Source: Xylanibacter ruminicola 23 (GTDB lineage: Bacteria > Bacteroidota > Bacteroidia > Bacteroidales > Bacteroidaceae). From it: a stretch of DNA of 32,000 nucleotides. Shown here piece by piece: positions 19,484 to 30,885 of the stretch; position 1 is the stretch's first letter; every line of letters begins with the position of its first letter. Position numbers and translations under genes: made by a program. The stretch covers positions 3,390,001-3,422,000 of the forward strand of contig NC_014033.1 of NCBI RefSeq assembly GCF_000025925.1, in the 5' to 3' direction. The notes under the pieces are model-generated. The model worked only from the letters and a program-made list of their open reading frames with translations. It was not told the origin of the DNA and made no database searches.

Positions 19484-21577
19484 ATGAGAGATTTTAAAAA
19501 ATGGCAATTTAGAATTACCTTAATCCTTACTGCTGCAATCCTGATGTCGTGTGGCGGCAATTCGCGCTCATGGAAGGGAAACAGTAAGTCGGCTAAGGAT
19601 TCGCTGAAGGTAAGTGCCATAGACAGTATGATTGTAGCTGTTGAGGAAGCAAAGGATTATGAACGTAAGTTTGCTTTGGCCGACAGTTTGGAAAAGACAG
19701 GCGACATCAGTCCTGTAAAGGCAAATTATTGGCGTGGTACTGCTTTGCGCAGCATGAAGAAAAAAGCAGCCTCTGAGGCATACTTCAAGAAAGCCTTGGA
19801 AGTAGAGGAGTTACAGGAAAAGGATGTGCTCTATTATAGCCGTTCGGCTCGCATATTGTCGCAGATGCTTTCGGTTAAGAACGATTACGAAGCAACCCTG
19901 CGTGTGGCAACACCTGCCGTACAGAAACTGGCAGGACTTCCCAAGGCACAGTCGGGCGATTTGGCTGTCCTCTATTATGTAATCGGTTCGGCCCAGATGT
20001 ATCTTGGTCACGTCGAGGATGCTTCTGAGAGTTACGAGAAATCCTTCGAGCAGTATATGAAATCTATCTCGAAGAAAGATACCAACGGTTCACGTATCCG
20101 TTCGGCCATTACCGGTATTAACAATATTACCGTGGCCTGTCTGAACACCCAGCACTATAAGGAGGGTAAGAAGTGGAACGACCGTACCGACTCTCTGCTG
20201 TATGTGTATCGCTTGCGTCCGGATGCCGACTCTGAGGTTTGCGACCACTATCGCGCTCGTATCCGTTTGTTCAACGCTTTGACTGCCTATGAGTTCGGTC
20301 ATCGTGCCGAGGCAGATGCCAGCTTTGCTGCCTTCCAGAAAACTGATTATGCAGCTACCGAGCAGGGAAAGTTGGATGCTAACGACTATCTGATGAAGGC
20401 TCATCGTTTCGAGGAGGCTGCTAAGAACTTCCGTACGCTCGATCACTGGGTTGATGTCCGTGGCATGAAGATGAATCTTGATAATATCTCGATGTATCTC
20501 ATTCCTAAGTATCGTGCCAATATCGGTGCTGGCCGTAAGGATTCGGCTATTTACGTAGCCAATCAGATTGTAAACGCATACGATTCGGCCCTTGTATGGT
20601 CAAAGCGTGATGATACAGCCGAGATGGCAACCATCTACGAAACCCATCAGAAGGAAGAAGAACTGGCTCGCAGTCAGTGGGAGCTTGAGAAGCGTGGACA
20701 TGATATTGCCCGTCAGCGTATGATCAGCTTCGGTATTGGAATCCTGCTGCTCACAGGCTTCCTGGGCTTCTATACACTTAACAAGCGTAAGGCCTTTAAG
20801 CTGTTGCAGGATGCCTACGATCAGCTTGAGGAGGCTACTTCGGCCCGTGAGCGTATCGAGAGTGAGTTGCGTATTGCGCGCGATATCCAGATGTCGATGA
20901 TTCCGGCCTCTAACCTTGAGAGCGAGGGCTTGGATCTGTTTGCATCGATGACGCCTGCCAAGGAGGTTGGTGGTGACCTTTACGACTACTTCCTTGAGAA
21001 GGATCACCTTTACATTGCTATCGGCGACGTATCTGGTAAGGGTGTGCCTGCCTCACTGTTCATGGCTCAGGTTATCCGCCTGTTCCGTGCCATGGCTAAG
21101 CAGCACTACACGCCTGCTGATATTTGTACCCGCATCAACAACGAGTTGACCGAGAATAACGAGAACGGTATGTTCATCACCATGTTCATTGGTTTGATCG
21201 ACCTGAATAGCGGTCGTCTCGACTTCTGTAACGCAGGTCATAATCCTCCCGTACTGGGCGGCGATGCTGATGGTGGTAACTTCCTGAAGATGGTTCCAAA
21301 TGCACCTATCGGTTTGTGGCAGGGCCTCGAGTTCGAGGGTGAGTATATCGATAGCATCAAGGGTAAGCCTCTCTTCATCTATACCGATGGTTTGAACGAG
21401 GCCGAGAACCCCGATCTGGTTCGCTTTGGCGATGATCACATGCTGGATGTTCTCCGTCATACCGAGTTTGCTAACGCCATGCAGGTGGTTGAGAGCTTGA
21501 AGCGTCAGGTAGAGGAGCACCGTCAGGGTGCCGATCCTAACGACGACCTCACTATGATGTGCCTGAAGGTTGGATAA
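19484..21577 (+). CDS. membrane-anchored PP2C/SpoIIE-family serine phosphatase with N-terminal periplasmic helical (TPR-like) domain
   Basis: Lipoprotein-like signal LILTAAILMSCGG. TM segment ISFGIGILLLTGFLGFYTL at about aa 415-435. PP2C/SpoIIE motifs GGDLYDYF, IGDVSGKGVPASLFMA, FCNAGHNPP, YTDGLNEA and DDLTMMCLKV. Confidence 0.85.
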   Translation: MRDFKKWQFRITLILTAAILMSCGGNSRSWKGNSKSAKDSLKVSAIDSMIVAVEEAKDYERKFALADSLEKTGDISPVKANYWRGTALRSMKKKAASEAYFKKALEVEELQEKDVLYYSRSARILSQMLSVKNDYEATLRVATPAVQKLAGLPKAQSGDLAVLYYVIGSAQMYLGHVEDASESYEKSFEQYMKSISKKDTNGSRIRSAITGINNITVACLNTQHYKEGKKWNDRTDSLLYVYRLRPDADSEVCDHYRARIRLFNALTAYEFGHRAEADASFAAFQKTDYAATEQGKLDANDYLMKAHRFEEAAKNFRTLDHWVDVRGMKMNLDNISMYLIPKYRANIGAGRKDSAIYVANQIVNAYDSALVWSKRDDTAEMATIYETHQKEEELARSQWELEKRGHDIARQRMISFGIGILLLTGFLGFYTLNKRKAFKLLQDAYDQLEEATSARERIESELRIARDIQMSMIPASNLESEGLDLFASMTPAKEVGGDLYDYFLEKDHLYIAIGDVSGKGVPASLFMAQVIRLFRAMAKQHYTPADICTRINNELTENNENGMFITMFIGLIDLNSGRLDFCNAGHNPPVLGGDADGGNFLKMVPNAPIGLWQGLEFEGEYIDSIKGKPLFIYTDGLNEAENPDLVRFGDDHMLDVLRHTEFANAMQVVESLKRQVEEHRQGADPNDDLTMMCLKVG

Positions 21578-21604
21578 TCCGTAAAATTATATACCGATAT
21601 CATC

Positions 21605-21636
21605 AAAAGTACCGCAACGCGTTGCGGTACTTTTTT
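21605..21636. terminator. bidirectional rho-independent terminator (22-nt perfect palindrome flanked by A4 and T6)
   Basis: aaaa-gtaccgcaacgcgttgcggtac-tttttt. The core GCAACGCGTTGC lies at 21614-21625. Confidence 0.8.
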
Positions 21637-21780
21637 GCGTATATGCGCTTGCATTTTTAGCAAAAAATGTTCATATTTGCAATACCAAAACAACACAAAT
21701 ATTCATATAATAGGTCATTTGATGGTATCACAATAGGGTTGTCTTGTTGCACATATCATTAAATTTAATTAGTTAGATAA

Positions 21781-21808
21781 GGTCACCGGCTTGTGAAAGT
21801 CGGTGACC
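21781..21808. other. stable 10-bp stem-loop in the LacI upstream region
   Basis: ggtcaccggc (21781-21790) pairs with gtcggtgacc (21799-21808), with one G-U pair and an 8-nt loop. No U-tract follows. Confidence 0.5.
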
Positions 21809-21824
21809 CATCTAACTGGGGAAA

Positions 21825-21836
21825 GCAACGCGTTGC
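21825..21836. promoter_or_regulatory. second copy of the GCAACGCGTTGC palindrome (candidate LacI/PurR-type operator), followed by T8
   Basis: The 13-mer gcaacgcgttgcg is identical to 21614-21626. It lies 46 nt upstream of the lacI -7 box. Confidence 0.3.
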
Positions 21837-21882
21837 GCAATTTTTTTTGATGTGTTGTGCCTATTATTTACGCAAAAATATG

Positions 21883-21890
21883 TATTTTTG
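21883..21890 (+). promoter_or_regulatory. -7 promoter box (TAttTTTG) for the LacI-family gene
   Basis: tatttttg lies 28 nt upstream of ATG 21919. Confidence 0.5.
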
Positions 21891-21918
21891 TGCTGACTAA
21901 CATTATACAACGACTTAG

Positions 21919-22917
21919 ATGAAAAGAATTTCGCAGCGAGAAATCGCTAACTTATTGGGTGTCAACGTCTCTACCGTATCTCGTGCTTTGCGAGGTCTCG
22001 AAGGCGTTAGTCAGGAATTACGTCAGAAAATTCTTAGTCTTGCCAAGGAGCAGGGCTACCGTCCCAACCCGTTTGCTGTAAGCTTACGTTACGATACCAC
22101 CCGTACCATTGGTATTGTGGTGCCCGATGTATCGTTTAACCATTATGCCCAAATCGTGAAGCGTATCGAGGCCGAGGCCCGCAAAGTGGGCTACATGTGC
22201 ATCATCACCGACTCCGACGACAAGTACGAGAACGAAAAGAATTGTATCGACTTGCTGGTGAATATGCATGTCGAGGGTATTATCATTTGCCTGGCTCAGG
22301 AAACCACCGACTTCTCGCATATTCAGCATCTCCGTAGGATTCACATGCCTGTGGTGCTGTTTGATAGAGATGCTGATATCGATATCTCGTCGGTAGTTAT
22401 CAACGATGTTGAATCAGCTCGTGAAGTTACTTGCAGGTTGATTGACGGTGGTGCCAAGCGTATTGCTTTCCTGGGTGGTCCTAACCGCCTGAAGCAGACG
22501 GCCGATCGCAAGCATGGCTATCTTGAGGCTCTGCGCGAACGTGGAATACCTATCCGCAAGGAGTTGGTAAAGTGTGATTTTCTAAGCTTCAGTTCTGGTT
22601 TCTCGAATACTACCGAGTTGCTTGATATGCACGACCGTCCTGATGCCATTGTTGCCAGTCATGGTTTGCTGACCCTTTCGTCAATGAAGGCCATCGAGGC
22701 TCGTGGGATGAATGTTCCCAATGATATCTCAGTTGTGGGTTATATGAGCGATTGGATTTCGGAGGTATTAACCCCTCGTGTATCGTTTGTTAAGCAGAAT
22801 CAAAAAGAGATAGCCGTAAAGGCCTTTAAACTGCTGCACGACCAGATGGATGGCGACACCTGTGTGCAGCATGTCATCGTAAAAGCCCGACTGGAGTTGC
22901 GCGACAGTACCCGATGA
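21919..22917 (+). CDS. LacI-family transcriptional regulator
   Basis: N-terminal HTH ISQREIANLLGVNVSTVSRALRG, then a periplasmic-binding-protein-like sugar-binding core (IGIVVPD..., ...RIAFLGGP...). The length is 332 aa. Confidence 0.9.
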   Translation: MKRISQREIANLLGVNVSTVSRALRGLEGVSQELRQKILSLAKEQGYRPNPFAVSLRYDTTRTIGIVVPDVSFNHYAQIVKRIEAEARKVGYMCIITDSDDKYENEKNCIDLLVNMHVEGIIICLAQETTDFSHIQHLRRIHMPVVLFDRDADIDISSVVINDVESAREVTCRLIDGGAKRIAFLGGPNRLKQTADRKHGYLEALRERGIPIRKELVKCDFLSFSSGFSNTTELLDMHDRPDAIVASHGLLTLSSMKAIEARGMNVPNDISVVGYMSDWISEVLTPRVSFVKQNQKEIAVKAFKLLHDQMDGDTCVQHVIVKARLELRDSTR

Positions 22918-22944
22918 CAACCAACATAAAATTTAATTAGTAAT

Positions 22945-25848
22945 ATGTACAATTTAATTAGGTCTTTTTTAGTTTTAACTTTATTATTTGTAACCTTTAC
23001 AGCTGCGGCGCAGCCCGACCCCGAGGACAGAAAGCTTACTATCCGCGGACAGGTGCGCGATGCCGAGCTGAAGGAACCGATGGTACAGGCTACCATCCAG
23101 TTGTTTGCCGCCTCCGACAGCACTTTTGTAGGCGGCACCGTTAGTAACGAGCGCGGTAATTTTTATCTTACCGCCCCATCCAGTGGCACCTATCGCATTA
23201 AAATCTCGTCGGTAGGCTACCAGACCATCGAACGCGAGATAACGCTGCGTCGTAACGCTAATCAGGATTTGGGCAACCTGCTCATGGAGACCGAGAGTAT
23301 CATGCTGCAGGAGGCTGTTATCACCGGTCGTGCCGCACAAGTCATCGTTAAAAAGGATACCATCCTGTATAACCCTGAGGCCTACCGTACTCCCGAGGGC
23401 TCGCCTATCGAGGAGCTTATCAAGCGTATTCCTGGTGCCGAGGTAGATGAGGATGGCAACATCACCATCAACGGTAAGCAGGTTAAGAAGATTCTGCTGG
23501 ATGGTAAGGAGTTTATGCTGGGCGATGTCGAGACGGCACTCAAGAATATCCCCGTGAGCATCATCCAGAACATGAAGTTCTACGATCAGCAGAGCGATGA
23601 GTCGCGTATCACTGGTATCGAGGATGGCGAGAAGGAAACCGTGCTCGACTTCTCTATTAAGAAAGGTATGAACCGCGGCTACATGACCAACCTCGACTTG
23701 GGTGGCGGCACCAAGCATCGCTATGCCTCGCGTGGTATGGGGAGCAGCTTTACCGATAAAACACGCTTTGTGCTGTTGGGTAACTTTAATAATAAGGAGG
23801 AGAATGCCGGCTGGTGGAACCGTCGTGGCTTGAACTCGCGCAAGATGTTAGGCACCAACTTCAACTTTGATGATAACGATAAGCTCAAGATTGATGCCAG
23901 CGTGCGTTGGAACCACCGTGGTGGCGACAACCAGACCGAGAATGCCAAGGAGGATTTTTACAGCGAAGGCAGCACCTTCTCTAACACCCTTACGGCCAAC
24001 TATACCCGTAGCGATAACTGGTGGGGTAACCTGCGCTTTGAGTGGAAGCCCGACAGTCTTACTAACATCCTGGTACGTGCCAACGGTAGCTATGGCACCA
24101 GCGATGGCACTACCCAGTCGATGGCTGCCACCTACGATGCCGACCCTTATCTGTATGCCACCGACCCGCTCAACCAGCTCTCGGTGCTCAAGCCCTATGC
24201 CATTAACCAGAACTTGAATGCCAACCTGACGTATGGCGAGAACAAGAATGCCTGGGCCATGCTGCAGCTGTATCGCCGCTTGAATCCTCGCGGTCGTAAC
24301 ATCATTCTGCGTGTTGAGGGTAGTGCCGGCAACAGCGAGAACCAGAGCGTATCCGATAACGAGGTGCTGCTGTTCCGCAAGCAGGATCTGTATGGTAACG
24401 ATTCTACCTACTATACTGCCCGTTACAGCACCACGCCTGCCGATAACTGGGGCTATGTGCTGCGTACATCCTACAGCGAGCCCCTGTGGAAAGGTGCCCA
24501 CCTGCAGCTCAGCTACGAGTTGCGCTATAACCAGAATAAGAGCGACCGTCTGACTTACGACTTCAGTCACATGTCTACGAACATCTTCGAGGGCATCACC
24601 CCCGAGTACCGCACCTGGGATCCCTGGCTGCACAGTGTGTACGATAAACTCGACGATTACCTGGAGCGCGACCTGAGCCGCTATTCCGAGTATAAGAACT
24701 ATACCCACAACGTGCGCCTGAACCTGCGCCACCGTGTCGAGAAGTACGATTACAACATCGGTTTCCTGGTTCAGCCCCAGCACTCTAACTTTATCCAGAA
24801 CTACCGTGGTGTGTATGTAGATACCGTGCGTAATGTAACCAACCTTACGCCAACATTCGATTTCCACTATAAGTTCAGCGATCAGAGCAACCTGTGGCTG
24901 CACTACCGTGGCGATACCCGTCAGCCTGAGATGACCCAGCTGCTCGATATCACCGACGACTCTAATCCGCTTTACGTCACCATGGGTAACCCTGGTCTGA
25001 AGCCTCAGTTCACCAGTTCGCTCAATGGTTATTACAACAACTATATTGTGCGTTACAAGCGTAGTATCGTGGTTTATGCCAACTACCGCCACATCCGCAA
25101 CTCCATCTCAAACCTGGTGCGTTACAACCCCGAAACAGGTGGTAGCATCACCCGTCCCGAGAATATCAACGGCAACTGGAACGTTAATGCCGGCTTTACC
25201 TTTAATACGGCGCTCGACAGTACTGCCCATTGGAATGTAGGTACCGATACCCGTGTGCGCTATAACAATCTGGTAAGCTATGTGGCACAGGATAAGGCCG
25301 ATGCCGCCAAGAACACCACCCGTACCACTAACCTGAACGAGCGCATCACCATGGGCTACCGTAACGATTGGGTCGAGGTGTCGCTCGATGGCCAGCTCAA
25401 CTACCAGCACACCCGCAACGAGCTGCAGCCCACAGCCAACCTCGATACCTGGCAGTTTAACTACGGTGGACAGTTCCTGGTGCGCCTGCCGCTCGACTTC
25501 GAGTTGAGCATGAACCTGCACGAGCGCAGTCGTCGTGGCTATAACGATGCCTCGATGAACACCAACGAGCTGATATGGAATGGTCAGGTATCCAAGCCGT
25601 TCCTCAAGAATAAGTCGCTCATCGTGGCCCTTAACTTCTACGATCTGTTGGGGCAGCAGAGCAACTACGAGCGATGGGTAAACGCCACTGGTCGTAGCGA
25701 TACCCGCTTCAACAGCGTTAACTCTTACGCCATGCTGCATGTGCGTTACCGCCTGAATATGTTCGGTGGCAAGATCGACACCGAGGGCCGTTACGACAAG
25801 AAGTGGGGCGGCCGCGACAACCGTGGTCGTGGTGGATGGCGCCGATAA
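22945..25848 (+). CDS. TonB-dependent-receptor-like outer membrane beta-barrel protein (CarboxypepD_reg + plug + barrel; not SusC/SusD type)
   Basis: Signal peptide. The segment LTIRGQVRDAELKEPMVQATIQLF...GNFYL...YRIKISSVGY resembles a carboxypeptidase-regulatory domain. Plug-like segment IKRIPGAEVDEDGNITINGKQVKKILLDGKEF. A long alternating beta-strand region ends at YAMLHVRYRLNMF and is followed by an Arg/Gly-rich tail. Confidence 0.8.
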   Translation: MYNLIRSFLVLTLLFVTFTAAAQPDPEDRKLTIRGQVRDAELKEPMVQATIQLFAASDSTFVGGTVSNERGNFYLTAPSSGTYRIKISSVGYQTIEREITLRRNANQDLGNLLMETESIMLQEAVITGRAAQVIVKKDTILYNPEAYRTPEGSPIEELIKRIPGAEVDEDGNITINGKQVKKILLDGKEFMLGDVETALKNIPVSIIQNMKFYDQQSDESRITGIEDGEKETVLDFSIKKGMNRGYMTNLDLGGGTKHRYASRGMGSSFTDKTRFVLLGNFNNKEENAGWWNRRGLNSRKMLGTNFNFDDNDKLKIDASVRWNHRGGDNQTENAKEDFYSEGSTFSNTLTANYTRSDNWWGNLRFEWKPDSLTNILVRANGSYGTSDGTTQSMAATYDADPYLYATDPLNQLSVLKPYAINQNLNANLTYGENKNAWAMLQLYRRLNPRGRNIILRVEGSAGNSENQSVSDNEVLLFRKQDLYGNDSTYYTARYSTTPADNWGYVLRTSYSEPLWKGAHLQLSYELRYNQNKSDRLTYDFSHMSTNIFEGITPEYRTWDPWLHSVYDKLDDYLERDLSRYSEYKNYTHNVRLNLRHRVEKYDYNIGFLVQPQHSNFIQNYRGVYVDTVRNVTNLTPTFDFHYKFSDQSNLWLHYRGDTRQPEMTQLLDITDDSNPLYVTMGNPGLKPQFTSSLNGYYNNYIVRYKRSIVVYANYRHIRNSISNLVRYNPETGGSITRPENINGNWNVNAGFTFNTALDSTAHWNVGTDTRVRYNNLVSYVAQDKADAAKNTTRTTNLNERITMGYRNDWVEVSLDGQLNYQHTRNELQPTANLDTWQFNYGGQFLVRLPLDFELSMNLHERSRRGYNDASMNTNELIWNGQVSKPFLKNKSLIVALNFYDLLGQQSNYERWVNATGRSDTRFNSVNSYAMLHVRYRLNMFGGKIDTEGRYDKKWGGRDNRGRGGWRR

Positions 25849-25860
25849 ACACTAAAAAGA

Positions 25861-25894
25861 ACTGCAATTTTTTTCCAAATTGCAGTTTTTTTTA
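25861..25894 (+). terminator. strong rho-independent terminator after the OMP gene
   Basis: actgcaattt (25861-25870) pairs with aaattgcagt (25877-25886) as a perfect 10-bp stem with a 6-nt loop. A run of 7 T follows (25887-25893). Confidence 0.85.
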
Positions 25895-25948
25895 TCAATG
25901 TGCGAATAAATTTTGGATAATTCAGTGTTTTTTGTTTCCTTTGCACCC

Positions 25949-26839
25949 ATGAATACGATACTCACGATAACAGGTAGCGACGGTACAGGTGGTTCTGGTG
26001 TTCAGGCCGACATCCAGCTCATCAGTGCGTTAGGCGGTGCTGCAGCATCGGCTATCACGTCGATTACCGTGCAGAACACCCTGGGTATCCAGGAGTTCCA
26101 CGATCTGCCTGCCTCAGTGGTTCGTCAACAGGTCGAGGCTATCATCAACGACCTCCAGCCGCAAGTCATCAAGATTGGTCTGGTGCGCCGTATCGATGTG
26201 GTCGAGATGCTGGCCGATGTGCTCAAGCGCTATCAGCCCAAGCACATTATCTATGCCCCCGTGCTCACATCTACCAAGGGCGAACAACTGGTTCTGCCCC
26301 GTGTTTACGAGGCCATCCAGCGCCTGCTCATACCGCTGTGTACCGTGGTTCTGGCGCCATCCGATCTGCCTGGCGGTCCCCGTCGCCATGGTCTTGCCAA
26401 CCAGTTGGGATCGGCATTGGCCTATTATCTCAGTCTCGACGAGAAGGTGAGCGATGCTCTGCTGCATGCGCAAACCTATCTCAAGCAGCTGCCTGCCGTT
26501 TATGCCGATGGTAACACCCGTAGCGAGGAGCTTTACAATCAGTTCCTGGATGCTGTTGAGCATTACTACAACCGCTATGCCGATGTGGCTTTCTATGCCG
26601 AACAGCTCAATGTTAGTGCGCGCTATCTGGCACAGGTAACCCGTCAGATTGCCGGTCGTTCGCCCAAGGCCATCATCGACGAGCGTATCACTGCCGAGAT
26701 TGTCAAGCTTATCACCACAACCAACAAGCCACTCAAGGACGTAGCCCTGTGTCTGGGCTTCTCGTCGCAGGCCCACCTGTCGCGTTTCTTCAAAAAGCGC
26801 AAAGGTGTTTCGCCCACCGAATTTCAACATAAACAATAA
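25949..26839 (+). CDS. fusion protein: degenerate ThiD/PdxK-like (HMP-P/pyridoxal kinase fold) N-domain + AraC/XylS-type HTH C-domain
   Basis: N-terminus [30 protein letters not shown]...KIGLV...[12 protein letters not shown]...[16 protein letters not shown] is ThiD-like. The HGTGC motif is replaced by HGLAN and the ATP-lid segment is missing. The C-terminus [18 protein letters not shown]...[25 protein letters not shown] is an AraC HTH. ATG 25949 is preferred over the ORF-track start 25913. Confidence 0.8.
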
Positions 26840-26846
26840 ATACAAA

Positions 26847-27722
26847 ATGACAAACGAAAGACAAGCGTTAAACCGCCAGTTAGCTCAGATGCTGAAGGGT
26901 GGTGTTATAATGGACGTGACTACTCCCGAGCAGGCCAAGATAGCCGAAGAGGCTGGTGCCTGCGCTGTAATGGCCCTCGAACGTATTCCTGCCGACATCC
27001 GTGCAGCAGGAGGTGTTAGCCGTATGAGCGACCCTAAGATGATTCGTGGCATCCAGGAGGCTGTAACTATTCCCGTGATGGCCAAGTGCCGTATCGGTCA
27101 TATTGCCGAGGCTCAGATCTTGCAGGCCATCGAGATTGATTATATCGACGAGAGCGAGGTGCTCAGCCCAGCCGATAACATCTATCATATCGATAAGACC
27201 AAGTTCGATGTGCCCTTTGTGTGTGGTGCCAAGAACCTTGGCGAGGCCCTGCGCCGTATTGCCGAGGGCGCTACCATGATTCGTACTAAGGGCGAACCAG
27301 GTACCGGCGATGTAGTACAGGCTGTGAGTCACATGCGCCTGATGCAGAGCGAGATCCGCCGATTGGTATCTATGAGCGAGGATGAGCTTTACGAGGCAGC
27401 CAAGCAGTTGCAGGCCCCTTACGAGCTGGTACGCTACGTACACGATAATGGCAAGCTGCCTGTGGTTAACTTTGCTGCTGGTGGTGTGGCTACCCCTGCC
27501 GATGCTGCGCTCATGATGCAACTTGGTGCCGAGGGTGTGTTTGTAGGTAGCGGTATCTTTAAGAGTGGCAACCCCCGCAAGCGTGCTGCCGCCATCGTAC
27601 AGGCCGTAACCAACTGGCAGGATGCCAAGCTGCTGGCCCAGCTCTCCGAGGATCTTGGCGAGGCTATGGTAGGTATCAACGAGCAGGAGATCCAGCTCTT
27701 AATGGCCGAGAGAGGTAAGTGA
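26847..27722 (+). CDS. pdxS: pyridoxal 5'-phosphate synthase, lyase subunit PdxS
   Basis: [52 protein letters not shown]...[10 protein letters not shown]...[31 protein letters not shown] is the near-invariant PdxS/SNZ signature. The start was moved to ATG 26847. Confidence 0.95.
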
Positions 27723-27745
27723 ATAGTGAAGAGTGAATAGTGAAA
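27718..27745 (+). repeat. 14-nt tandem duplication forming the pdxS-pdxT spacer
   Basis: agtgaatagtgaag (27718-27731) is followed by agtgaatagtgaaa (27732-27745). The first copy contains the pdxS stop TGA (27720-27722). The second copy runs into the pdxT ATG (27745). Confidence 0.8.
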
Positions 27746-28344
27746 TGAAAGCAGCAGTGTTGGCCCTGCAAGGGGCATTTATAGAGCACGAGCAGGTGCT
27801 GCAACGCCTAGGCGTTGAAACGGTGGAGATTCGCCAATTAAAGGATTGGCAAAAGTTTGTCTCCTCAGCATCCCCCTCCCTTTTGGGAGGGGTTAGGGGT
27901 AGGCTTGATGGGGGTAGGCTCCTCATCCTGCCTGGTGGCGAAAGCACCGTGCAGCTGCGCCTGCTCAAGGAGTTGGGGCTTTTCGAACCCATCCGCCAGG
28001 CCATTGCCGATGGCATGCCTGTGCTAGGCACCTGTGCTGGCATGATTCTGCTCTCACAGGGTTATCTGGGCACTATGGACATCCGTGTGCGTCGCAACGC
28101 CTACGGTCGCCAGTTAGGCAGTTTCCACACCACAGGCACTGTCGAAGGCATTGGCGACGACGTGCCTATGACCTTTATCCGTGCACCGTATATCGAAGAG
28201 GTGCTGTCGGCCGATTGTCAGCCGATAGCCGAAGTAGATGGCCATATCGTTGCCGCTCGTCAGGGTAACCAGATTGCCACGGCATTCCACCCCGAACTCG
28301 ACAGCGATACCCGCCTGCACCAATTGCTTATTTCGTTACAATAA
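27745..28344 (+). CDS. pdxT: pyridoxal 5'-phosphate synthase, glutaminase subunit PdxT (with ~20-aa in-frame insertion)
   Basis: MKAAVLALQGAF, LPGGEST, the GTCAG nucleophile elbow, RNAYGRQ and FHPEL (His/Glu). The ORF-track start 27733 is a GTG codon, and ATG 27745 is preferred. Confidence 0.9.
   Translation: MKAAVLALQGAFIEHEQVLQRLGVETVEIRQLKDWQKFVSSASPSLLGGVRGRLDGGRLLILPGGESTVQLRLLKELGLFEPIRQAIADGMPVLGTCAGMILLSQGYLGTMDIRVRRNAYGRQLGSFHTTGTVEGIGDDVPMTFIRAPYIEEVLSADCQPIAEVDGHIVAARQGNQIATAFHPELDSDTRLHQLLISLQ
27859..27918 (+). repeat. GC-rich hairpin / G-run element embedded in frame in pdxT
   Basis: cccctccc-tttt-gggagggg (27873-27892). ggggtaggc occurs twice (27896-27904 and 27911-27919). G-runs lie at 27885-87, 27889-92, 27896-99 and 27910-14. 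The element encodes VSSASPSLLGGVRGRLDGGR. Confidence 0.7.
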
Positions 28345-30763
28345 TAACTACTCCGTTCTTTAGGCCGCCACTCTCACATGTCAGGGTGGCGGTTGTTTTT
28401 TGTGTGGTGCTCTGCACCAGCACCTGTGCCCTGCCGTTAAAGGCTGGCACGCTGAATGTCTTACAGTTCAGCTCCTTGGGATGGTCGATGCCTGCATACA
28501 TCGGGTCGCCGTTGCCCACACCTAATATGCGGGCATCACCCTCTAATCGCAGGCTCAACATCGGACAGGCATCAGGCACTACGCGCCCTTTCTTGTCCTG
28601 CACCTCGATGGTCACCACTGCCAGGTCCTGTCCGTCGGCCGTAATCGTCTGTCGGTCGGTCTTCAGCACTGTCTTATAGGCAGGCTTGGTGGTCTCTATG
28701 GTCTGTGTCAGTGTGCGCTTGCCGTTCTTGTAGCCTATGGCCACCACCTTACCTGGCTGGTAGGTGGCTTTCCACTTCAGGTGCCCGTTCTTCGGCATCG
28801 CCTGTCGGCCCAGTTTCTTTCCGTTCACTATCAGTTCTACCTCGTCGCAGTTGCTGTAGGCCCACAGTTCTATCTCCTCGCCCTCGTGACCCTGCAGGTT
28901 CCAGTGTGGCAGCAGGTGCAGCGTAGGCTCATCCGTCCACCAGGCTTTCAGATAGTAAGCCTCGTCTTTCCAGAATCCGCAGTAGTCCAGGATACCGAAT
29001 TCCGAGTCGTGCGCAGGATAGGACAGGGGATTGGGCTCGCCGCGATAGTCAAAGCCCGTCCAGTAGAACAGTCCTGCAGCCCATGGTCGCTCGTCGTAGA
29101 ACTTCCAGCCGCGCTCAATGATGTTCTCGTAGTTCTGTTCCATGGTACGGTTCATACTCACCATGCGCCCCTTGCAGTCGGGGTTGTTAAAGTAGATGCC
29201 GCGTGTGCCGCAGCCCGTTGTCTCTTCGGTGCCCACAATCTTCCAGTCGGGGTTGGCCTTCTTACGGTTATCCACATCGTTCTGGATAATGTAGTTAAAT
29301 CCCTTCACGTCCAGTCCCTTTATCAGCTCGGTACCGCCAGCATTAGCCACCGTACTGGGGCGTGTAGGGTCGTACAGTCTGGTGTATTCGCGCATGGCTT
29401 CGGCCAGTCGTGTGCCCTGTATGTTGTTTTCCAAGCCCCATTCCTCGTTGCCGTCGCTCCACAGGATAATGCTGGGGTGATTACGGTCGCGCTTAATCAT
29501 CCGCTCCAGCAGTCGCAGATGCTCGTCGTTGATGCCCATCAGTCGGTTCTCGTCGATGACTAAGATGCCCTCGCGGTCGCAGATGTCCAGCAGTGCTGGC
29601 GTCATGGGGTTGTGCGATGCGCGATAGGCATTGCAGCCAAAGGCCTTCAGCTGCTTAATGCGCCATGCCTGCAAGGCATCGGGAATGGCAGCGCCTACAC
29701 CCGCATGGTCCTGATGCAGGTTCACGCCCTTCAGCTTCAGGGGCTGGCCGTTCAGCAAGAAACCACGGTCGGCTGTAAACTGTATATCACGCAAACCTGT
29801 TGTTGTTTCGTACACATCCGTTACCTTACCATCTACCTTTACCGTGGTCTCCACCTTATACAGATAGGGTTCGGTGGTGCTCCACAGGTGCGGATTAGAA
29901 ATCTTTATCCGATGATCGGTTGTTCGCGTTTCTTTGGCGAGTATAGGGTACGTGAATCCGCTGACGTGTGCCACCTCTCTGCCTTCGGCATCCAGTATTC
30001 GCTGCTCAACCTCATATAGCTGGGTTTTCAAGCTGCTGTTGGTCACCTCTGTCTTTACATGTACCACAGCCTCGTTGTAAGGCTGCTGCAGTTCGGCGTA
30101 CACAAACGTACCGAAAGGTGCCACGCTGACCTGTGCCGCTTTCTCCAACCACACGTCGCGATAGATGCCGGCGCCCTCGTAAAACCACCCCTCCTCCAGG
30201 GTGGCATCGGCGCGCACGCATATCAGGTTGTCGTCGCCGTATTTGATATAGGGTGTGATGTCGTAGGTCTGTGTGGCGTAACCGCTGGGTTCGATGCCCA
30301 TATAAAAGCCGTTGAACCATACACGGGCATTGCGGAAGATGCCGTCGAAGCGCAGCATCAGTCGCTTGCCCAGATCCTCGTTGGGTATGTGGATGGTTTT
30401 GCGATACCATCCCACGCTGGTTTCAGGGTATTTGTAGCCCACCGTCTTATAGCCGTGCGAGTGACTGGCTTCGGCCGCATAGGGCAGTGTGGTCACCCAG
30501 TCGTGCGGCAACTGCACCTCGTGCCAACGGTTGTCCTCCACAAATTTCTGCGCGTACGGTCCCTCGTTGTGTATCGAGTTGGCCTTTGTCAGATAGTTAA
30601 AATACTCCGTGCCGCAACCGAAGTCCTTTTGAGGGTCGGCAGCGTTTCCCAGTGCAAATCGCCATCCCTTGTCAAGTCGGATGGTTTCGCGTACGCTCTG
30701 TGCATTCAAGTTGGCAGTTAGCAGGCAGCCTATCGCTGCTACAATCATCGTTTTAAGTTTCAT
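28328..30763 (-). CDS. GH2 beta-galactosidase-like glycoside hydrolase, secreted
   Basis: Signal peptide MKLKTMIVAAIGCLLTANLNAQS. GH2 sugar-binding domain WFYEGAGIYRDVWL. TIM-barrel segments NAYRASHNP and HPSIILWSDGNEEWG (acid/base Glu). The start was moved to ATG 30763 because the -7 box lies inside the longer ORF. The 3' end overlaps pdxT by 17 nt. Confidence 0.88.
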   Translation of the reverse strand: MKLKTMIVAAIGCLLTANLNAQSVRETIRLDKGWRFALGNAADPQKDFGCGTEYFNYLTKANSIHNEGPYAQKFVEDNRWHEVQLPHDWVTTLPYAAEASHSHGYKTVGYKYPETSVGWYRKTIHIPNEDLGKRLMLRFDGIFRNARVWFNGFYMGIEPSGYATQTYDITPYIKYGDDNLICVRADATLEEGWFYEGAGIYRDVWLEKAAQVSVAPFGTFVYAELQQPYNEAVVHVKTEVTNSSLKTQLYEVEQRILDAEGREVAHVSGFTYPILAKETRTTDHRIKISNPHLWSTTEPYLYKVETTVKVDGKVTDVYETTTGLRDIQFTADRGFLLNGQPLKLKGVNLHQDHAGVGAAIPDALQAWRIKQLKAFGCNAYRASHNPMTPALLDICDREGILVIDENRLMGINDEHLRLLERMIKRDRNHPSIILWSDGNEEWGLENNIQGTRLAEAMREYTRLYDPTRPSTVANAGGTELIKGLDVKGFNYIIQNDVDNRKKANPDWKIVGTEETTGCGTRGIYFNNPDCKGRMVSMNRTMEQNYENIIERGWKFYDERPWAAGLFYWTGFDYRGEPNPLSYPAHDSEFGILDYCGFWKDEAYYLKAWWTDEPTLHLLPHWNLQGHEGEEIELWAYSNCDEVELIVNGKKLGRQAMPKNGHLKWKATYQPGKVVAIGYKNGKRTLTQTIETTKPAYKTVLKTDRQTITADGQDLAVVTIEVQDKKGRVVPDACPMLSLRLEGDARILGVGNGDPMYAGIDHPKELNCKTFSVPAFNGRAQVLVQSTTQKTTATLTCESGGLKNGVVIIVTK

Positions 30764-30790
30764 TGTTTGCTGTTTATAGTTATTTTTTTG

Positions 30791-30798
30791 CAAAGATA
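30791..30798 (-). promoter_or_regulatory. -7 promoter box (TAtcTTTG) for the GH2 gene
   Basis: The reverse complement of caaagata is tatctttg. It lies 27 nt upstream of ATG 30763. Confidence 0.5.
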
Positions 30799-30885
30799 GT
30801 GCAAATCGCGCGAAATACAAAATTATTTTTCGCAAAGTCGTTCTATAATACTAACAATCAGCAAAATAGTACAAACGATCATCGG

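Follow-up and report, generated by a model that had tools for sequence, protein, structure and literature searches.

Organization of the locus

The window analyzed here is a 32,000-nt stretch of the genome of Xylanibacter ruminicola 23 (NC_014033.1, positions 3,390,001 to 3,422,000 of the forward strand), and this report concerns a 296-aa open reading frame (ORF) within it, here called the regulator, that directly precedes pdxS and pdxT, the genes for the two subunits of pyridoxal 5′-phosphate (PLP) synthase. An earlier reading, made from the letters of the window without database searches (hereafter the sequence-only reading), had described this ORF as a kinase-like domain continuing into an AraC domain, and had placed pdxS 7 nt beyond its stop codon and pdxT 22 nt beyond pdxS; all of these coordinates were reproduced. 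The genes and parts concerned are as follows.

25949-26839, + strand: regulator ORF, from ATG 25949 to a stop codon ending at 26839 (included), 296 aa
25949-26491, + strand: sensor domain of the regulator (aa 1-181), a truncated, non-catalytic ThiD (hydroxymethylpyrimidine phosphate, HMP-P, kinase) fold
26492-26839, + strand: linker (aa 182-195), AraC/XylS double helix-turn-helix (HTH; aa ~196-296) and stop codon of the regulator
26847-27722, + strand: pdxS, lyase subunit of PLP synthase (NCBIfam NF003215, 509 bits, cutoff 395)
27745-28344, + strand: pdxT, glutaminase subunit of PLP synthase (TIGR03800, 183.5 bits, cutoff 105.6)
28363-28404, + strand: terminator-like hairpin and T-run (12-bp stem, 7 GC), 19 nt after pdxT and likely the end of the operon

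The regulator is 99% identical to those of X. (Prevotella) ruminicola strains D31d and Ga6B6, and ATG 25949 corresponds to a start that is conserved across 80 orthologues. An upstream TTG at 25913 was considered as an alternative start and rejected: the orthologues begin at an ATG located 3-6 codons before the motif ILTITGSD, and the stretch upstream of this ATG is kept as DNA and not as protein.

A truncated ThiD fold joined to an AraC output domain

Pfam profile searches detected both a Phos_pyr_kin domain and AraC-type HTH domains in the regulator. The kinase match is partial: aa 11-134 align with profile positions 1-123 of 246 only (E 9.8e-38). Likewise, the equivalog model for HMP-P kinases (TIGR00097) gave 117.3 bits against a cutoff of 204.95, over model positions 1-131 of 254 only, and that for ThiD-like pyridoxal kinases (PdxK; NF009077) gave 64.8 bits against a cutoff of 385, again over the N-terminal half only. 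Alignment with solved ThiDs located the missing part. Residues 3-137 of the regulator are colinear with residues 25-158 of 7r8y; beyond aa 137, 8 regulator residues (the deletion lies at aa 138-146) stand in place of ~68 of ThiD, a net loss of ~60 aa, after which the regulator's HGLAN aligns with the ThiD motif HGTGC at 7r8y residue 227, the HG being aa 147-148. The sequence-only reading had recognized a ThiD- or PdxK-like beginning, the absence of 50-60 residues and the change of HGTGC to HGLAN, and the solved structures bear it out on each point. The sensor retains strands 1-6, the flap and the residues of the substrate pocket, and the ThiD C-terminal GxGxGP tail is replaced by a linker and the AraC domain.

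Structure models agree with this picture. The AlphaFold (AF2) model of the regulator has a mean pLDDT of 85.9 and is weak at the junction (aa 141-147) and in the linker (aa 182-190). Its best structural matches in the Protein Data Bank (PDB) are ThiDs and ThiD-like PdxKs, with TMt values of only 0.6-0.7, which reflect partial coverage of the targets; the Foldseek probability of the sensor was 1.0 to each of 4jjp, 1jxi, 2i5b and 4c5l. For a longer relative, the 360-aa protein P0290, the model shows the ThiD fold in full (TMt 0.91, rmsd 1.7-2.4 Å). Set beside the long model, the short form has no counterpart of two helices of P0290 (139-146 and 153-165) and of three of its strands (170-174, 182-189 and 192-199). 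In the ribokinase superfamily this segment, with strands 8-10 and helices 5-6 of the fold, is the ATP-binding half and carries Lys176 and the NxxE motif. The models thus confirm the missing segment, for which the sequence-only reading had used the term ATP-binding lid; the deletion stands, but its extent was understated, and as modelled it is the whole ATP-binding half of the kinase fold that has been removed from the regulator.

In the C-terminal part, Pfam HTH_18 matches aa 216-293 with 67.3 bits (cutoff 33.6, E 1.5e-18) and HTH_AraC scores 55.3 bits (cutoff 26.6), the HTH matches together spanning aa 216-294, so that the canonical AraC/XylS double HTH proposed earlier lies above gathering scores. 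By sequence this region matches AraC (2k9s) and SoxS (7w5w), and seven helices are modelled at aa 190-295. The linker (aa 182-195) is of low model confidence; R191 and L195 are conserved there within a GRxxELYN motif.

Loss of catalytic residues and retention of the substrate site across the family

A large family of ThiD-AraC fusions emerged when 1.84 billion representative proteins were searched and a profile search was added. The profile search returned 6611 clusters at E <= 1e-30, and the named members belong to Prevotella, Bacteroidaceae and Bacteroidales. The proteins fall into two length classes, short (290-327 aa) and long (344-391 aa), and at the junction intermediate forms keep 15-25 residues that are missing from the window protein. 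One 296-aa protein, P0178, carries a different deletion, lacking roughly helix 3 to strand 7 and keeping the ATP-side half; it may represent an independent reduction, or else an assembly or gene-call artefact.

We surveyed residues in 289 family members (128 short and 161 long), using the numbering of Salmonella typhimurium ThiD (1JXH/1JXI), onto which we presume our positions map. The catalytic Cys213 was found in none of the 289, and neither was Thr211. At the Asn of the NxxE motif the 161 long forms have Arg or Lys, and at Lys176 they have Arg, with the original residue in none of them; the long forms retain these two positions, whereas the short forms have them deleted. The catalytic degeneracy that had been ascribed to the window protein is therefore a property of the family at large, and, as catalytic residues are lost in the long forms too, catalysis was lost before the deletion happened. 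By its sequence the window protein is the most reduced stage of the family.

Other positions are kept. Asp23 and His209-Gly210 are present in 100% of the 289 members, Gln44 in 99% of short and 81% of long forms, and Asp23, Gln44-Asn45 and Val107 are invariant in the short forms. On the pocket side, the family departs consistently from ThiD at several residues, with Thr for Ala before GSD, Leu for Met80, and Asn or Gly for Cys213. Among 79 distinct orthologues from different species, mean identity to the window protein is 80% over the N-terminal half of the sensor and 76% over the AraC domain, the truncated sensor thus being at least as conserved as the DNA-binding domain. Residues invariant in these orthologues include G9-S10-D11, D21, Q42, K75-G77-L78, V105, C131, H147-G148 and N151 of the regulator. 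Because pocket-lining residues are among them, the sensor remnant is under strong purifying selection at the positions of the ThiD substrate site.

These results bear on two alternatives. If the sensor bound no small molecule and served as a mere dimerization or stability module, with pdxST constitutive or under some other signal, the pocket might have been ruined by the 60-residue deletion, and the poorly modelled junction at aa 141-147 would accord with that. However, it is the ThiD substrate-site residues (G9-D11, D21, Q42, L78, V105, H147-G148) that do not vary among the 79 orthologues, and the N-terminal half of the sensor is the better conserved part of the protein; we regard such a scaffold as improbable. 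Alternatively, the protein might be a bifunctional HMP/HMP-P kinase (HMP, hydroxymethylpyrimidine) or a pyridoxal kinase with a DNA-binding tail, perhaps a moonlighting enzyme-regulator. That is the sense of the public annotation, and the Pfam match to Phos_pyr_kin is significant. Yet the match covers half of the profile, the ATP-binding strands and helices being absent; in every one of the 289 members the GTGC anion hole, the NxxE Asn and Lys176 have been altered or lost; and the NCBIfam scores fall far under the equivalog cutoffs, so that we give an enzymatic role hardly any credence. The best reading of these sequences is that the 296-aa protein is a transcription factor and not an enzyme, and that its sensor domain descends from HMP-P kinase. 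All source names on the family members are 'bifunctional hydroxymethylpyrimidine kinase/phosphomethylpyrimidine kinase'; given the loss of the catalytic motifs, this naming of thousands of entries looks like a systematic misannotation.

Linkage to pdxS and pdxT

The genomic context of the regulator was examined in 80 species-level genome loci, of which 3 were cut by contig ends and 77 were informative. In 76 of the 77 informative Prevotellaceae loci, pdxS and pdxT lie downstream of the regulator on the same strand. The distance from the regulator stop to pdxS is at most 40 nt in 52 loci and 41-150 nt in 20; in 4 more a few genes are inserted, with pdxS-pdxT still downstream on the same strand. 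The remaining locus, from Xylanibacter brevis, has no pdxS within 5 kb, and a gene for a type I restriction-modification methylase follows the regulator instead. Among the long forms (354-391 aa), whose ThiD fold is kept whole, pdxS is directly downstream in 6 of 7 contexts examined, mostly with pdxT. The synteny between fusion gene and pdxST that the sequence-only reading had left to comparative genomics is thus kept well beyond the window, and, as pdxS also follows the long forms, the association with pdxST predates the deletion and spans the family.

Two loci types deserve mention in their own right. The interval between the regulator and pdxS in L052 (5888-8454), and likewise in L054 and L060, holds another AraC-family gene, which is on the opposite strand, and two ORFs without a Pfam match; the conserved box described below stays with pdxS despite the insertion. 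In L088 (1-2129), two TMP-TENI genes and a Thi4-type thiazole synthase gene lie 0.5-2.5 kb upstream of a long-form regulator, which is followed by pdxS; these thiamine genes could be a coincidence or a hint of a link to thiamine.

A conserved box upstream of the promoter

For an ungapped alignment on the -7 promoter box, we took the DNA that precedes the regulator, or that precedes pdxS if a long gap parts the two genes. The aligned consensus consists of TTTnnCCAAAnTGnanTTTCnTTTATCAnAAnnGGAAC, 28 nt that include TTTG at -33, and TTaCTTTGCA, and the flanks on either side are not conserved. Phylogenetic footprinting, which the sequence-only reading had proposed for finding an operator, therefore gave a single conserved box and a promoter at the head of the pdxS unit. 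The elements of the control region in the window are as follows.

25860-25893, no strand assigned: hairpin (AACTGCAATTT / AAATTGCAGTT) with flanking A-run and T-run; stem 25860-25887; the 100-nt region folds with -26.9 kcal/mol, z -5.2
25870-25907, + strand: conserved 38-nt box, candidate operator; family consensus as given above
25912-25915, + strand: TTTG, -33 promoter element of the Bacteroidetes type, kept in most of the orthologous regions
25936-25943, + strand: TTCCTTTG, -7 promoter element, the most conserved stretch of the control region

The two promoter elements are 20 nt apart and fit the Bacteroides consensus, TTTG / TAnnTTTG (-33/-7). Since only 5 nt separate the -7 element from the ATG, the mRNA is probably leaderless or nearly so. 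We also considered a riboswitch or leader RNA in 25849-25948 and rejected it: Rfam gave nothing at gathering score in the 32 kb, with chance-level matches only in 25800-26000, and the conserved element lies upstream of a -7 box that the ATG follows after 5 nt.

A position weight matrix (PWM) of the box, built from 48 distinct orthologous regions, matched the 32-kb window once, at 25870-25907 (score 42.5), with no other match of 10 or more. It matched exactly once per locus, on the coding strand, in the 77 Prevotellaceae loci, of ~10 kb each, that either include pdxS or end before reaching it; two X. brevis loci and one truncated contig had no match. Besides the one site per pdxS unit, the PWM found no further sites in the window or in the ~10-kb loci. 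The box always heads the transcription unit that holds pdxS. In operonic loci it lies ~110 nt before the regulator ATG, and in split loci, three of which have 3.3 kb between regulator and pdxS, it lies before the pdxS ATG. It is found at a fixed 28 nt upstream of the -7 box and, counted from the inferred transcription start, spans ~-80 to -43. Internally it has the form of a degenerate direct repeat that recurs every ~21-22 bp (self-similarity 9.1 of 21 matches, vs ~6 at other offsets). Long-form loci have a related proximal half-site, TTTTACnAnAnnGGAAC, before pdxS at the same distance from the -7 box, and a second (G/A)GAA(C/T) 21 nt upstream of it.

The hairpin at 25860-25893 had been taken for a strong terminator that isolates the three genes from the upstream gene, and the operator had been sought downstream of it, in 25895-25948. 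The hairpin and its T-run are real, and it is likely a bidirectional terminator of the upstream outer-membrane receptor gene. Its role is not that of an insulator only, however, as it overlaps the box: the 3′ arm and T-run form the distal part of the box, while the 5′ arm is present in the closest relatives only. The box starts at 25870, within the supposed terminator, and the candidate operator thus extends upstream of the range considered earlier.

In a subset of loci an inverted repeat (nnGGAAC...GTTCCnn) followed by a T-run straddles the -33 element, perfect over 6-10 bp and with covarying flanking bases (upstream regions of L015, L021, L025, L028, L049, L058 and L078; L082, 7083-7191; L090, 4131-4268). 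As a core operator or attenuator we rejected it, because a perfect stem of at least 6 bp occurs in only 7 of the 48 distinct sequences. The repeat is weakly enriched (mean stem 4.77 vs 4.35 in permutations) and amounts to 4 bp in the window. In the long-form loci it may be a terminator of the regulator gene that overlaps the pdxS promoter.

The inverted repeat also matters for the sign of regulation. A ligand-dependent repressor of pdxST, whose vitamin B6-bound form sits on the box, on the inverted repeat at -33 or on both and blocks RNA polymerase, would embody the simplest feedback logic, end-product repression; the box has its proximal GGAAC right beside the -33 element, and some lineages carry a second, inverted GTTCC between -33 and -7. 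However, the conserved part of the box, at -80 to -43, is upstream of the polymerase footprint, at the classical activator position of AraC/XylS proteins (araI, RhaS, XylS). The inverted repeat, apart from its rarity at 6 bp or more, does not reach that length in the window, and the spacing between its arms varies from 6 to 16 nt. We therefore consider repression unlikely, though worth keeping in view.

Proposed mechanism of regulation

We propose that the regulator is a pseudokinase-sensor AraC protein that controls PLP synthase, probably as an activator antagonized by a B6 vitamer; our confidence in this reading is roughly 65%, its ligand and sign being deduced from the features set out above. 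Motif loss, linkage and the box support the idea, already put forward in the sequence-only reading, of a dead kinase domain recruited as the sensor of an AraC protein over PLP synthase, with ligand and sign as predictions. In this scheme, the AraC domain would bind the 38-nt box just upstream of the -33/-7 promoter. The window promoter would drive regulator, pdxS and pdxT as one near-leaderless operon; in relatives in which the regulator is transcribed separately, it would drive pdxS-pdxT alone. The sensor would dimerize as ThiD does and thereby bring a pair of AraC domains onto the repeat. With little B6 in the cell, the regulator would activate the promoter; when a B6 vitamer, most likely PLP, binds the sensor, activation would be relieved. 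The outcome would be end-product feedback on PLP synthase and, with the operon layout of the window, autoregulation.

The activator role is suggested by the position of the box, at ~-80 to -43, and by its ~21-bp direct repeat, as at the araI, RhaS and XylS sites. A B6 compound is suggested as effector because the linkage is exclusively to pdxST, and PLP in particular because the HG helix start is retained while the ATP site is dispensable. That helix start is where kinases of the ThiD fold hold the transferred phosphate.

An effector of another class must be weighed here. With the same architecture and target, the regulator could respond to HMP, HMP-P or another thiamine-related pyrimidine, in keeping with the ancestral specificity of the pocket. 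The sensor scores 117 bits with the HMP-P kinase model and 65 bits with the PdxK model, its best PDB matches are ThiDs, the ThiD residues Asp23, Gln44-Asn45 and Val107 do not vary in short forms, and one long-form locus, as noted, has TMP-TENI and Thi4 thiamine genes 0.5-2.5 kb away. Against this, no genomic partner other than pdxST is conserved and no other gene set lies behind the box, the remaining loci have no linked thiamine gene, and the Ala-to-Thr, Met80-to-Leu and Cys213-to-Asn/Gly changes set the pocket apart from that of ThiD. Nor do we know of an obvious physiological reason for placing PLP synthase under HMP control in bacteria that make HMP-P via ThiC. Moreover, ThiD-type proteins can possibly bind pyridoxal, to judge from the title of PDB entry 4ywr. 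We consider a pyrimidine effector doubtful.

Several observations weigh against a B6-responsive activator. The sensor is nearer to the HMP-P kinases (TIGR00097) than to the ThiD-like pyridoxal kinases (NF009077) in the scores just given, and the window sensor keeps the ThiD-type QNT motif; taken by itself, its sequence speaks for HMP no less than for a B6 vitamer. One long-form subgroup does not conserve the QNT motif, and the sensor pocket has to this extent diverged within the family. The family members surveyed are skewed to the top database matches. The X. brevis regulator (L019/L020) lacks an upstream box as well as a nearby pdxS, and 1 of the 7 long-form loci has no adjacent pdxS. Finally, the box could belong to another factor, and the inverted repeat across -33 in some lineages could serve a repressor.

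A bolder version of the proposal, to which we give slightly less than even odds, is that the window protein is a founding member of a B6-responsive family that extends across the Bacteroidales and replaces PdxR in that order. Its ThiD pseudokinase would have been re-tuned from HMP to PLP and shrunk stepwise, from ~385 through 360 and 320 to 296 aa, to a vitamer pocket and a phosphate-binding helix, and the protein, an activator of the AraC type, would act on a 21-bp direct repeat and have PLP for its anti-activator. The family itself comprises at least several thousand sequence clusters.

Comparison with known regulators

PdxR, a regulator of the MocR/GabR type, controls pdxST in Corynebacterium, Listeria, Streptococcus and Bacillus clausii. 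Apo-PdxR activates pdxST and PLP is its anti-activator (PMC5320631), and by analogy the PLP-antagonized activation that we propose would mirror PdxR. The two share the target operon, and in both cases the regulator gene adjoins its target. The proteins themselves differ: PdxR consists of a GntR winged helix and a fold-type-I aminotransferase domain that holds PLP on a lysine, and its gene is usually divergent from pdxST, whereas the window regulator combines a ThiD pseudokinase with a C-terminal AraC double HTH and is co-directional with pdxST, often in the same operon. Pfam and NCBIfam scans found no GntR, MocR or aminotransferase domain in the regulator. It may thus work like PdxR but, by sequence, it is not a member of the PdxR/MocR group; PdxR is the functionally closest system and is structurally unrelated.

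The sensor is homologous to ThiD and to the ThiD-like PdxK of B. subtilis and S. aureus, with Asp23, Gln44, Val107 and His209-Gly210 kept in the regulator. It differs from them in the deletion of the ATP-binding half in short forms and in the replacement of Cys213, Thr211, the NxxE Asn and Lys176 in the fusion family. Archaeal ThiR is reportedly an inactive ThiN thiamine-phosphate-synthase domain fused to a DNA-binding domain. It, too, would be a dead vitamin-pathway enzyme reused as a sensor for vitamin biosynthesis genes, but with another enzyme fold, another DNA-binding domain, another vitamin (thiamine) and in another domain of life. AraC/XylS regulators with enzyme-like N-terminal domains, DJ-1/PfpI or GATase1-like, include FtrA, GbdR and CdhR. 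The window regulator shares the C-terminal double HTH output with these and with AraC, RhaS and XylS, and with the FtrA, GbdR and CdhR type also an N-terminal ligand or dimerization domain borrowed from an enzyme fold. Its predicted site, a ~21-bp direct repeat abutting the -35/-33 element, would resemble the site architecture of the AraC family; its promoter differs in being of the Bacteroidetes sigma-A type. Both the principle of a dead enzyme as sensor (ThiR) and AraC proteins with enzyme-like N-terminal domains are accordingly known already.

To our knowledge, the ThiD fold has not been reported as the N-terminal sensor of an AraC-family protein, and the searchable literature holds no such report. 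In the full-text literature that can be searched, which leaves subscription-only papers outside, we found neither a ThiD-AraC regulator nor a regulator of pdxST other than PdxR, which agrees with the earlier remark that no characterized regulator of this architecture was known to the sequence-only reader. The vitamin transcription factors named in a review of gut-bacterial vitamin regulons are BirA, BioQ, NrtR, NiaR and PdxR, and no others (PMC6593275). The regulator thus looks like a representative of an undescribed family of B6-biosynthesis regulators across the Bacteroidales that databases label as an enzyme.

What is known about the control of B6 synthesis comes mostly from PdxR of Firmicutes and Actinobacteria, and the searchable literature does not describe how PLP synthase is controlled in the abundant Bacteroidales of gut and rumen. 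If our proposal is true, it would supply the missing Bacteroidales B6 regulator and an operator motif usable for regulon reconstruction, and the compact vitamer-binding domain of ~180 aa could be used as a B6 biosensor. The family is also a natural case of an enzyme turned sensor, in which the catalytic half was visibly lost in steps. In microbiome metabolic reconstructions, the misnaming as kinase inflates the predicted capacity for thiamine salvage.

Flanking genes

The 5′ neighbours of the operon (window 19484-25848) appear unrelated to B6. They are the following.

19484-21577: TPR-SpoIIE-type phosphatase gene
21919-22917: LacI-family regulator gene
22945-25848: CarboxypepD_reg and OMP beta-barrel receptor gene

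On the 3′ side, a GH2 glycosidase gene (28328-30835, minus strand) converges on the operon. The last 17 nt of pdxT, with its stop codon at 28342-28344, are shared with the 3′ end of this gene, and the hairpin that follows pdxT (28363-28394) sits within the GH2 coding sequence.

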